Positions 14,841 to 18,877 of a stretch of 32,000 nucleotides of DNA are shown here, piece after piece; within the stretch, counting starts at the first letter, position 1; every line of letters starts with the position of its first letter. The DNA is taken from NCBI GenBank assembly GCA_030604855.1, contig JAUVVC010000003.1:60001-92000 (forward strand), in the 5' to 3' direction. Below the pieces are notes generated by a model. It searched no databases, was not told the origin of the DNA, and saw nothing but the letters and a program-made list of their open reading frames with translations. This stretch comes from Erysipelotrichaceae bacterium. GTDB taxonomy: Bacteria > Bacillota_I > Bacilli_A > Erysipelotrichales > Erysipelotrichaceae. A program made the position numbers and the translations under genes.

Positions 14841-15416
14841 ATGGAAATTAATGTTGTTGCCAATAATAAAGCTATCGTCTCATATGACAACGGTACTGAA
14901 ATTAAGATACCTTCACAGATGTTTCCTTTAAATGGTGAGCTAAAGCTTTTTACATCGAATAATACAGAGAATTTAACGGATTCAACGATTGAGTCTATAT
15001 TCAATTCTGTAAAGCCAAGAATGGGTAAATGTTATTATAACGCCCAGGACTTAATTGATGCCTTGATTGTTGGCGGTATTGACTCGAAACGCATAAAATC
15101 CTATGTAGGTTGGCTATTTGTTGGGGATACGAGACCAGTTCATCACTGTTTTGTTATGCTGGACGACAAACATGTTCTGGATTATGGACCCTTGAAGCTG
15201 TTTGAAAATTTTGATGAGTACACAGATATGGATTCACTCGATAGATTCAAGAATGACATCATTGAGAATGATGTGCTATTGAATTCACAGAAGATGACCT
15301 TCGGAAGAGCGCTGAACGTGATTGCCTATGTCGTTTCAGAGTGTAGCCCCAAAGAAGGCGAGAAGATACGAGCGAAGCTCGAAAAAGCTTACCCAAAGCA
15401 CATCAGTTTTCTTTAG
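14841..15416 (+). CDS. Hypothetical protein (191 aa)
   Basis: Intact ORF. TATAAT lies about 15 nt upstream and there is no clear RBS. Its single Trp codon is TGG. Confidence 0.55.
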   Translation: MEINVVANNKAIVSYDNGTEIKIPSQMFPLNGELKLFTSNNTENLTDSTIESIFNSVKPRMGKCYYNAQDLIDALIVGGIDSKRIKSYVGWLFVGDTRPVHHCFVMLDDKHVLDYGPLKLFENFDEYTDMDSLDRFKNDIIENDVLLNSQKMTFGRALNVIAYVVSECSPKEGEKIRAKLEKAYPKHISFL

Positions 15417-15429
15417 GTATCATGAAATG

Positions 15430-15455
15430 TAATTAGAATCCGCGGATTCTAATTA
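15430..15455. repeat. 26-bp perfect palindrome TAATTAGAATCCGCGGATTCTAATTA
   Basis: Read directly and self-complementary over all 26 nt. No T-run follows. Confidence 0.9.
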
Positions 15456-15496
15456 GAGCTTAATCATTATGCATTAAAAACATACTGTAAAACCAT

Positions 15497-15518
15497 GAAC
15501 ACCGAAAGGTGTTTTTTT
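15497..15518 (+). terminator. Terminator of the AACACC/GGTGTT family
   Basis: GAACACC-gaaa-GGTGTT followed by TTTTT. Confidence 0.75.
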
Positions 15519-16793
15519 GTTGTTTTCTAGGAGAAACCAGGGTCTATGCGTATCTAGATAGTGCACCCTTGGCTTAATGCAGGGTTTAGTCCATTGAAAT
15601 CTATGAAAAAGTTATAAATGACTTAGAGCCGCAATATGATGCGGCAAACAAATAAATAAAAAAACCAGTTGTCTCATTAGAATTTAGAGTTCTAAAAAGG
15701 CGACCTAGGCAATCTCGTACATTGCGTTGGTGTTTAACTAGTTGTCTTCATTATACACAGAAGAAAACGAAATATAACTAAAACCCTGTTGTAAACCTCG
15801 AGAAATGCCACTCGGGGTTTTTATATCATGATTAAATCCCAATTTAGCTAGGTGAAAAACGTTGGGTTGAAATAGAGTGGGTTGGCAGCCCAAAGTGGAA
15901 CTAGGTAGATGAAAGAAGTGCTCCGGACATAGGGTTTTTCGCGTTGCGCCTATGTTCGGGCAAACCCGCGCAGTAATTCAGAAGAAGAGCGGGAGACAAA
16001 AACTATTCTGGGGCTACAAGAAGACCATTGAAAGCATATGTGTCTGGGAGCAGATTACTAAAAACATACAGTAATCGAAAATCATAAGGGCTAAGTTATT
16101 AAAACGTTGGTGAATACATTCAGCAAGACGTCTTTCGAAAGGAAGTTGACTTAGGATAACGCGAATAATACGGATACAACACGGAGACTTAACTCGACCC
16201 GAGGGAAGAATCATTGTCTAGATTAATCAATACCAGCAAAACTCTCAAGGGTTTTCTGCGTCCCGCTGAAAAGATTAAGCCGTTTCAAGCCGTTTCTTCC
16301 TCTCGCTCGGGAAGTTGGGAATGCCAAAGATAAGGCTGAAACGAAAAGAAAACAAAACATAATAGCAAAGCAGCGGACGCGATAGAAAGTAAGTGTAAAC
16401 GGAAACGATACAGAATGAGTTGGATTCCGAGTAATTAAAAAAGTTTTACTAGAATCGAAAGTTAAACAAAGGAACTTAGCAGTGTAGATAAGAGTTAAGT
16501 GATAATCAATCAATAATGAATAGATAATCAGTTAAGTCTAATCTAATAAATACATACTAAACTAAGAATGACTCAATTCAACCTAATAGAGCTTCTCGTA
16601 CAATAAAGTGATTCTTGACTAAAAACATTGATTTTGGAAATAATTTTCTAAAATTCACTTTGTGGCATACTTATGCGACACAATAAATAAGGGCCAATTT
16701 TACAAAGATTTCAAACAAAAATTGTTGTTTTATAAGTCAAGAAAATGATATATGATAGCATAAATTGGCTAGGTGCCGTAAAGGAGAAATGAG
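15519..16793. other. 1.3-kb ORF-free region with a GC-richer structured core (about 15840-16450); candidate large ncRNA or origin region
   Basis: TAA/TAG occur in all frames, and only two short, low-complexity minus-strand ORFs are present. Local and long-range helices are listed in the findings. Confidence 0.4.
15796..15822 (+). terminator. Intrinsic terminator inside the ORF-free region
   Basis: CCTCGAG-aaatgcca-CTCGGGG (one G-U pair) followed by TTTTT. Confidence 0.5.
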
Positions 16794-17222
16794 ATGAAGT
16801 ATAGTCTTTTTAACTATAAAGAATTTGACGAAAATGATTGCGAGTTCAGAATCAACACCTATATTGTCGACGGTATAAAGTTGAGTGAATTGGAATTTGA
16901 TTCACTCAGATATGCAAGTCCCTTCGGAGATAACCCAAGTGGTTTGTTCTTTTACAGTATTTCTAAATCAAGATTTAGAAAACTAGTGAAGTTAGGAGTT
17001 ATATTAAAGGACCATGATAGTCCATATAGAGCTATGTATGTTGTTGATAAAAATTTTAAAAGACGATTGGATGAAATTGCAAAAGAACTTAAAGAAATCA
17101 ACACAATGAGAAAAGCAGAGCAATGGTCGATTGACAATGGCTATGAGTTGCTAATAACGTACCAAACCATGATTGATGTTGATAAAATCATGGATGTCAG
17201 GAAGGAAGCAAGACCAATATAA
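16794..17222 (+). CDS. Hypothetical protein (142 aa)
   Basis: RBS AAGGAG lies 7 nt before the ATG. Intact ORF. Its single Trp codon is TGG. Confidence 0.65.
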   Translation: MKYSLFNYKEFDENDCEFRINTYIVDGIKLSELEFDSLRYASPFGDNPSGLFFYSISKSRFRKLVKLGVILKDHDSPYRAMYVVDKNFKRRLDEIAKELKEINTMRKAEQWSIDNGYELLITYQTMIDVDKIMDVRKEARPI

Positions 17223-18824: not shown

Positions 18825-18877
18825 TATGCAATATTAACCTATAGTGCATACCCTGTAGTCGGCACCATTTGCACACG

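Follow-up and report, generated by a model that had tools for sequence, protein, structure and literature searches.

The subject of this report is a gene-free stretch of 1.4 kb (the gap, 15417-16793) in a small integrated element of an Erysipelotrichaceae bacterium, whose source genome comprises 1.62 Mb in 15 contigs. The window, that is the whole stretch of 32,000 nucleotides that was analysed, corresponds to C13:60001-92000 (C13 being contig JAUVVC010000003.1), and positions are those of the window unless a contig is named. The gap is real: it is non-coding and conserved, and forms a module in the backbone of a rare family of elements. It separates the genes for ParA, a double-RHH protein and ORF191 (ORF, open reading frame) from those for ORF142 and a tyrosine integrase (int), 21 kb from the tRNA gene at which the element is integrated, and all the genes neighbouring it lie on the plus strand. 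Tentatively, and on the basis of sequence comparison, we consider that it may act, upstream of ORF142-int, as a regulatory leader or an untranslated RNA region on the plus strand.

According to this reading, the gap would be a control region within the element backbone, untranslated and made of several parts, that works on the plus strand. Its left part (approximately 15620-15822) would form a short leader or small RNA unit, which opens with a 5′ hairpin, continues with a TTAGAA-N7-TTCTAA palindrome resembling an operator and with another small hairpin, and is closed by an intrinsic terminator. Transcripts extending past the terminator would cross a purine-rich, weakly structured untranslated stretch of about 0.8 kb, and the read-through would next meet a promoter-proximal inverted repeat, followed by ORF142 and the tyrosine integrase gene. 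In other words, the module would set the amount of transcription that reaches the recombination genes, and an element-encoded DNA-binding regulator might act at two TTAGAA/TTCTAA palindromes. We infer the promoter positions, the control of read-through and any role of the core beyond being transcribed.

Non-coding status and composition

A first-pass annotation of this DNA had described the gap as the longest non-coding stretch of the window, lying between the partition and integrase modules and having a core richer in GC than its flanks, and these three statements hold. No ORF of more than 96 aa occurs in 15417-16793 in any frame with translation table 11 or table 4, and the gap is truly protein-free under both codes. 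It is also among the longest gene-free stretches of the 1.62-Mb genome, which is compact and has few of such length. The core (15830-16440) has a GC content of 42%, against 35% and 28% in the flanks. Moreover, the core carries no period-3 signal (z -0.09, versus 8.6-14 for ParA, ORF191 and the gene of a 436-aa protein) and no translated similarity, in a tblastx-type comparison, to related loci or to other parts of the genome, while a search of 1.84 billion representative proteins with the 96-aa minus-strand ORF found no relative, nor does this ORF belong to any protein family; for the same reasons, the possibility of a decayed gene was rejected. An 89-aa ORF of code 4 (15805-16074, with four TGA codons) was likewise discarded as a gene, as a 1-nt deletion breaks its frame in the related contig L010 and it has no family. 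In another related contig, L022, the alignment with the window contains indels of -2, +1 and +1 nt.

The composition of the core is strand-biased. Specifically, its plus strand is 60.6% purine (A+G), which equals the most purine-rich genes of the window, and this share is further from 50% than that of every other ORF-free stretch of at least 400 nt in the genome. A purine skew on the gene strand fits transcription of the core together with its neighbours. The gap sequence is single-copy in its own genome.

Conservation in related elements

Relatives were recovered by means of ORF191 and ORF142 homologs, which provided five informative contigs. L004 and L005 (from Logan) span nearly the whole gap, L010 (=L013) spans 15634-15913, L018 spans 15477-15855 and L022 covers 16184 onward; no divergent homolog spans 15913-16184. 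The recurrence of the gap in all these contigs despite differing neighbour genes supports its identification as a backbone module, as does the absence of GATC that it has in common with the rest of the element. In L010 and L018, in fact, other small genes sit between ORF191 and the conserved DNA, and more distant family members have quite different genes at the gap position. Since the conserved DNA is thus found with differing neighbours, the gap behaves as a module.

The degree of conservation varies from one relative to another. Against L010, the non-coding piece 15634-15913 is 86% identical, versus 69-75% for the coding DNA of ParA and ORF191. Against L004, just 3 substitutions and 1 indel are found over 15696-16430 (99.5% identity, a figure that the core also reaches with L005), and the DNA of ParA, RHH and ORF191 is about 91% identical; the similarity then ends abruptly at approximately 16640, beyond which identity is about 60% and the ORF142 protein just 57% identical. 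Against L022, the non-coding DNA is 77-97% identical per 60 nt versus 85-100% for ORF142, and against L018 it is 72-84% versus 78-93% for ORF191. From these alignments, selection on the nucleotide sequence of the gap appears plausible, not proven.

The left unit and the pairing on the plus strand

The left part of the gap is closed by an intrinsic terminator on the plus strand (CCTCGAG-AAATGCCA-CTCGGGG-TTTTT, 15796-15822), composed of 7 pairs, an 8-nt loop and five T residues. One trait of a leader with an intrinsic terminator, a U-run behind a GC-rich stem on the strand of the genes, is present here and conserved in relatives. The terminator that the first-pass annotation had placed here is therefore real as hairpin plus T-run and is kept in four lineages; it was read directly from the sequence, as the consensus terminator scan does not list it. 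In L010 a U-G pair has become C-G, and in L018 the stem is re-registered yet kept. In addition, an alternative pairing of AAAACCC (15780-15786) with GGGGTTTT (15814-21), also present in L010 and L018, could compete with the terminator.

Upstream of the terminator, the plus-strand hairpin GCCGCA/TGCGGC (15628-15645) is replaced in L018 by CTACA/TGTAG, with two pairs changed on both sides. The palindrome TTAGAA-N7-TTCTAA (15677-15695) has arms that are almost invariant in four lineages and a 7-nt spacer that is different in each. Conserved arms around a variable spacer are the usual look of an operator and could fold in RNA too, so that this sequence is a candidate operator or RNA hairpin. The plus-strand hairpin GCAAT-N7-ATTGC (15709-15725) is similar in this respect, with invariant arms and a variable loop. 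Beyond the terminator comes the most conserved block of the gap (15826-15870, plus strand), which ends in TTAAATCCCAATTTAGCTAGGTGAAAAACGTTGGGTTGAAA and includes 41 nt identical in every lineage reaching it.

Strand specificity is seen for the terminator and for two further plus-strand hairpins. The hairpin UGGGUUG/CAGCCCA (15863-15892) keeps its pairing in L010, where a G-C pair becomes G-U and a U-G pair becomes U-A. The hairpin at 16235-16258, with a UCAA loop (GCAA in L022), has a rebuilt and longer stem in L022, involving one two-sided change and several G-U pairs. The U-G and G-U pairs kept in this way correspond to C-A mismatches on the minus strand, and therefore the hairpins form on the plus strand, as RNA or as single-stranded DNA (ssDNA). 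These wobble-kept hairpins, a folding z below -2 on the plus strand only at 15600-15850 and the purine skew support a role of the plus strand. When a chosen set of hairpins was scored, 93% of the cells pair and 4 pairs show two-sided changes; the corresponding numbers are 1.7 for shuffles (of which 13/500 reach 4) and 0-2 for slid controls, and all come from 4-6 closely related sequences from which the structure had itself been picked. Together with the reading of the alignments by eye, this count gives modest support to a handful of local plus-strand hairpins.

Gram-positive mobile elements are known to carry long untranslated leaders with an intrinsic terminator, of the attenuator type, ahead of transfer or recombination operons, as in Tn916, where such a leader precedes tet(M) and the transfer genes. 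As in those leaders, the gap lies on the strand of its downstream genes, just upstream of recombination genes, and has an intrinsic terminator in an untranslated region with a possible alternative pairing to the 3′ half of the terminator. Unlike them, it has no leader peptide, known ligand or tRNA-sensing domain and no sequence similarity to them, about 0.8 kb of untranslated DNA follows its terminator, and its transcription is putative.

A number of observations, however, weigh against a leader. No convincing sigma-70 promoter is found upstream of 15620 or of 15830, either by scanning or by reading, and a promoter-like site (TTGACT-18-AATAAT, 16615-16644, plus strand) is placed directly before ORF142, which makes a long upstream leader unnecessary. 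A leader of 0.6 kb in which no structure or motif is detectable has no obvious purpose. Moreover, in the comparisons with L022 and L018 conservation is no higher in non-coding than in coding DNA, and as a consequence much of the gap may be unconstrained. The small and closely related sample behind the hairpin counts is a further point of the same kind.

A possible spacer between two backbone modules

The gap might instead be a largely functionless spacer, a relic of decayed cassettes together with regulatory pieces that hitch-hikes between two backbone modules. We regard this as rather unlikely. In such a case the near-identity with L004 would reflect a recent recombination tract instead of selection, and a tract of this kind could indeed explain it: the family is mosaic, and the L004 similarity stops at about 16640, next to an ORF142 with 57% protein identity. 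In addition, the gap diverges from L022 and L018 as fast as or faster than the neighbour genes, other family members carry different genes at its position, and the core is devoid of a folding signal and of repeats. On the other hand, a functionless spacer is difficult to reconcile with L010, which keeps 15634-15913 better than the DNA of ParA and ORF191, and with conserved blocks that are interrupted by a hairpin which is variable yet compensated. The purine skew and the avoidance of GATC persist across the gap, and very few gene-free stretches of such length occur in this compact genome.

Searches for a large structured RNA

The first-pass annotation had put forward a large non-coding RNA (ncRNA) as a candidate reading and pointed to the ROOL and GOLLD classes, without claiming membership. 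This was not borne out by covariance-model searches of Rfam 15, which gave zero family matches for the whole window at the gathering score and, at E<=10 in the region 15300-17000, noise only (mir-320, nse_sRNA and RefA1; 17-20 bits). In particular, the covariance models of ROOL and of GOLLD remained unmatched even at E<=10. Group I and II introns were also rejected, the Rfam models being unmatched and no ORF for a reverse transcriptase or a homing endonuclease being present, and so was a riboswitch, for which there is no Rfam match. The same applies to a tRNA or suppressor tRNA, which would be relevant to the reading of TGA as Trp: ARAGORN found none in the window, no Rfam tRNA match was obtained at E<=10, and across the element ARAGORN detected no tRNA except the flanking tRNA-Thr.

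Folding energies lead in the same direction. The 631-nt core segment 15830-16460 has, as RNA, a minimum free energy (MFE) with z -1.13 on the plus strand and -1.22 on the minus strand with respect to shuffles. The claim that the core is full of complementary segments thus does not go beyond chance, at an MFE z of about -1. Most of the segments listed in the first-pass annotation were found where it placed them (CCGGACATAGG/CCTATGTTCGG, GGGTTT/AAACCC and CCCAA), save for TTGGG, which lies at 15862-15866, one base off. The first of these pairs makes up an 11-pair hairpin, the strongest in the core (15923-15959, plus strand), in a segment that no divergent homolog spans. The proposed long-range plus-strand helix 16191-16208/16296-16316 does appear in the MFE fold, but the 147-nt segment around it folds with z -0.25, no better than chance, and L022 has both arms unchanged, hence no compensatory change. 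For windows of 150 nt, values of z under -2 are confined to 15600-15800 (plus strand only), 15850-15999 (plus strand), 16400-16600 and 16600-16750; over 15950-16400, z ranges from -1.6 to +0.6 and is mostly near zero. RNAalifold, applied to all sequences, returned a positive, that is unfavourable, covariation term and no compensated pair, and the hairpin comparison in the available homologs gave no support to a large ornate architecture.

ROOL RNAs have a mean length of 581 nt (PMC5737381; PMC12286853). The gap resembles ROOL and GOLLD in its length range, in being non-coding and in belonging to a Firmicute mobile element integrated at a tRNA gene; it differs from them in matching no model, in showing no sign of many multistem junctions, in folding about as well as shuffles and in lying 21 kb from the tRNA.

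It is quite improbable, but conceivable, that the gap encodes a new large trans-acting ncRNA of about 0.6-0.8 kb, transcribed from the plus strand and specific to the element family, with a defined tertiary fold hidden from energy prediction and from the few homologs. Such an RNA would fit the length, a core richer in GC than its flanks, conservation in blocks together with a stem that varies but is compensated, pairing specific to the plus strand, and a core that is 99.5% identical to L004 between flanking genes at 91%. It would, however, have to be reconciled with the lack of an Rfam match, an MFE z of about -1, window scores near 0 over 15950-16400 and the unfavourable RNAalifold covariation term. 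Moreover, no terminator is found at the 3′ end of the core, and no relative turned up among 1,262 genomes searched with DNA, 151 searched with a covariance model, plasmids, phages and IMG/VR. A stricter version, in which the core (15.83-16.44 kb), with or without the left unit, represents a new class of plus-strand ncRNA of about 0.6-0.8 kb restricted to GATC-free, TGA-recoded elements and acting in trans, is very doubtful; its roles could be, for example, in the maintenance, anti-defence or unusual decoding of the element.

The scope of these searches was as follows. When searched in 1,262 species representatives, drawn from the genus, family, order and class levels, the gap DNA gave only chance-level matches of 23-46 nt, and a covariance model of the left unit had no match in 151 genomes. 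No similarity was detected in plasmids (72,556 records, near and distant mode) or phages (50,697 records), and pattern searches of IMG/VR returned nothing or chance matches. An exact 22-mer searched in collections of genome and metagenome contigs matched solely one relative contig already recovered, and scans of such collections with the flanking proteins gave no match. Distant ORF191 relatives have no DNA similar to the gap, nor do five cassette leaders of the element share alignable similarity with it.

Two further possibilities regarding short motifs were rejected. A CsrA-type sponge is not indicated, as GGA occurs 14 times against about 13 expected, with no enrichment; GTTGG is found in 5 copies versus 0.5 expected, which is not significant when corrected for all 5-mers.

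A possible DNA-level maintenance site

A replication or transfer origin was the main alternative put forward by the first-pass annotation, which had correctly noted that no rep gene is visible: no Rep domain is present in any protein of the element. The origin itself found no confirmation, given the lack of iterons, of a DnaA-box cluster, of an adjacent rep gene and of plasmid or phage similarity. Specifically, an iteron-type vegetative origin (oriV) is not supported, since there is no direct-repeat array: no k-mer of at least 7 nt occurs more than twice in the gap, and the sole tandem repeat is 2 x 10 nt (AAGCCGTTTC twice, 16277-16296, plus strand), complementary to GAAACG motifs at 16338 and 16397. 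A DnaA-box oriV is unsupported as well, with two one-mismatch boxes in the gap, a window total at chance level and no adjacent initiator gene. A single-strand origin (sso) or ssDNA promoter (Frpo, ssi) likewise found no support, there being no plasmid match in near or distant mode and no compact array of strong strand-specific stem-loops, with the core as ssDNA folding at z -1.9 on the plus strand and -0.95 on the minus strand.

The broader possibility is that the gap is a DNA-level maintenance site, be it a vegetative origin, or a priming site or single-strand origin that serves the element once it has been transferred or replicated as ssDNA, which we regard as highly improbable. The gap does adjoin partition genes, and since no recognisable rep gene is present in the element, an unconventional origin is possible. 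The plus strand folds as ssDNA slightly better than shuffles, and ssDNA hairpins tolerate G-T wobbles too. Furthermore, the plus-strand 18-mer ACTAAACTAAGAATGACT (16556-16573) is common to the gap and to another hairpin region of the element: a 17/18 copy lies at C13:58674-58691, at the start of a hairpin array (E 0.33 within the element, borderline), and the sharing could reflect a common protein-binding site or chance. Against this, besides the missing iterons, the chance-level DnaA boxes and the absence of a similar plasmid or phage record, the strong hairpins of the gap are few and scattered over 1.2 kb, whereas the known sso's measure about 200 nt, adjoin the relaxase gene and hold three strong stem-loops (PMC4595007). 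The sso1 of ICEBs1, for instance, covers about 200 nt, is 76% identical to plasmid sso's and consists of three defined stem-loops directly after the relaxase gene (PMC4595007). Like sso1 and the sso's of rolling-circle plasmids, the gap is non-coding and forms hairpins in a strand-specific manner, and sso1 too belongs to an integrative element. Unlike sso1, it has no plasmid similarity, its hairpins are weak and scattered, and it is placed between partition and integrase genes. Within the same element, the better candidate for a single-strand DNA site is the hairpin array at C13:58.7-59.25 kb. The array is GC-rich with perfect hairpins, whereas the gap core is purine-rich and weakly folding, and the two have one 18-mer in common.

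Other features of the gap

Two elements mark the left border of the gap. Directly after the ORF191 stop lies a 26-bp perfect palindrome (TAATTAGAATCCG|CGGATTCTAATTA, 15430-15455), detected by repeat search and identical in L004/L005, which contains TTAGAA-N8-TTCTAA (15433-15452), a candidate operator. The intrinsic terminator of ORF191 follows on the plus strand (GAACACC-GAAA-GGTGTT and a T-run, 15497-15522); it is conserved in L010, L018 and L019 and belongs to a terminator family common to the element. At the right side, an AT-rich imperfect hairpin is located at 16485-16545 (local z -3.0). A second promoter-like sequence ahead of ORF142, TTTATA-16-TATGAT (16729-16756, plus strand), is enclosed together with the one at 16615-16644 by a 9-bp inverted repeat (16612-16620/16735-16743, within 16612-16756, plus strand), in which one pair changes from G-C to A-U in L022.

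A unit partly similar to the gap was observed in G186, of the same family and another genus (L024, L026). This unit of about 120 nt occurs in two copies, some 75-90 nt upstream of two genes. In it, TCATGATTAGATTCAATTTAGCTAGGTAC comes after a long hairpin of the terminator type, and the final 40 nt of the unit are similar to 15816-15861 of the window. The products of the two downstream genes start with hydrophobic, signal-peptide-like N-termini.

The host element and its family

The borders of the element are given by a 19-bp direct repeat, CCTGTAGTCGGCACCATTT, one copy of which is the 3′ end of tRNA-Thr(cgt) at C13:55044-55062, 4.9 kb left of the window, and the second of which lies after the integrase gene at 18852-18870. 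The paired copies therefore bound an integrated element of 23.8 kb whose integration target is the tRNA 3′ end. Its left end (C13:55318-58151) carries as cargo a C5 cytosine methyltransferase and a MutH/Sau3AI-like nuclease of the GATC-cutting type. GATC is absent from the whole element part of the window, including the gap, up to the right end at 18870, and occurs about once per 200 bp in the host DNA to the right. Moving rightwards along the element, the cargo pair is followed by the 0.6-kb array of hairpins described above, 16 kb upstream of the gap, by proteins of 201 and 523 aa, a BspA-type LRR protein and a NikA-like RHH protein, and by orphan proteins of 840, 643 and 436 aa whose frames are open only with TGA = Trp. 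Small-gene cassettes come next, and then ParA, the double-RHH protein, ORF191, the gap, ORF142 and the tyrosine integrase. The element proteins gave no match to a Rep, relaxase or type IV secretion ATPase domain.

ORF191 (14841-15416) forms with 20 homologs an orphan family with invariant Cys64, His101-His102 and Asp114. Its AlphaFold model is confident (pLDDT, the predicted local distance difference test, 88) and gives weak fold matches at E 0.4-1.5 (SseI catalytic domain, NTAQ1, LapG). ORF191 thus looks like a Cys-His-Asp hydrolase, with a weak resemblance to transglutaminase-like cysteine hydrolases, and not like a Rep protein. In related elements its gene stays beside the ParA and RHH genes.

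The family as a whole is mosaic and rare, and belongs to gut Erysipelotrichaceae. Four independent metagenome assemblies break inside the gap (L018 at 15855, L010 at 15913, L022 at 16184 and L005 at 16609), which suggests that several element variants with a near-identical core coexist in the samples. The L004 contig (Logan SRR21159539) measures 23,445 bp, nearly the length of the integrated element. It lacks an integrase gene, terminating a short way past the ORF142 homolog, and might represent a whole element in circular or permuted form. Finally, a distant ORF191 relative (ENA ERZ27287851) has 2.3 kb without a called gene upstream of its ORF191 homolog (L033:2254-4557), which may contain recoded genes or represent another long non-coding region, and which has no similarity to the gap.

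Significance

The main practical result is negative, in that the gap is not to be filed as ROOL- or GOLLD-like, or as an origin, on the present evidence. If the core were a discrete stable RNA the finding would matter more than a leader, large bacterial non-coding RNAs being rare, and such an RNA would sit in an element that decodes UGA, in an unexplained manner, within a standard-code host. The leader that we tentatively favour would, if true, be a useful but ordinary finding: it would show control of the integrase module in small integrative elements whose family is very poorly annotated and whose traits are the reading of TGA as Trp, the lack of GATC and a protein complement made up almost entirely of orphans.

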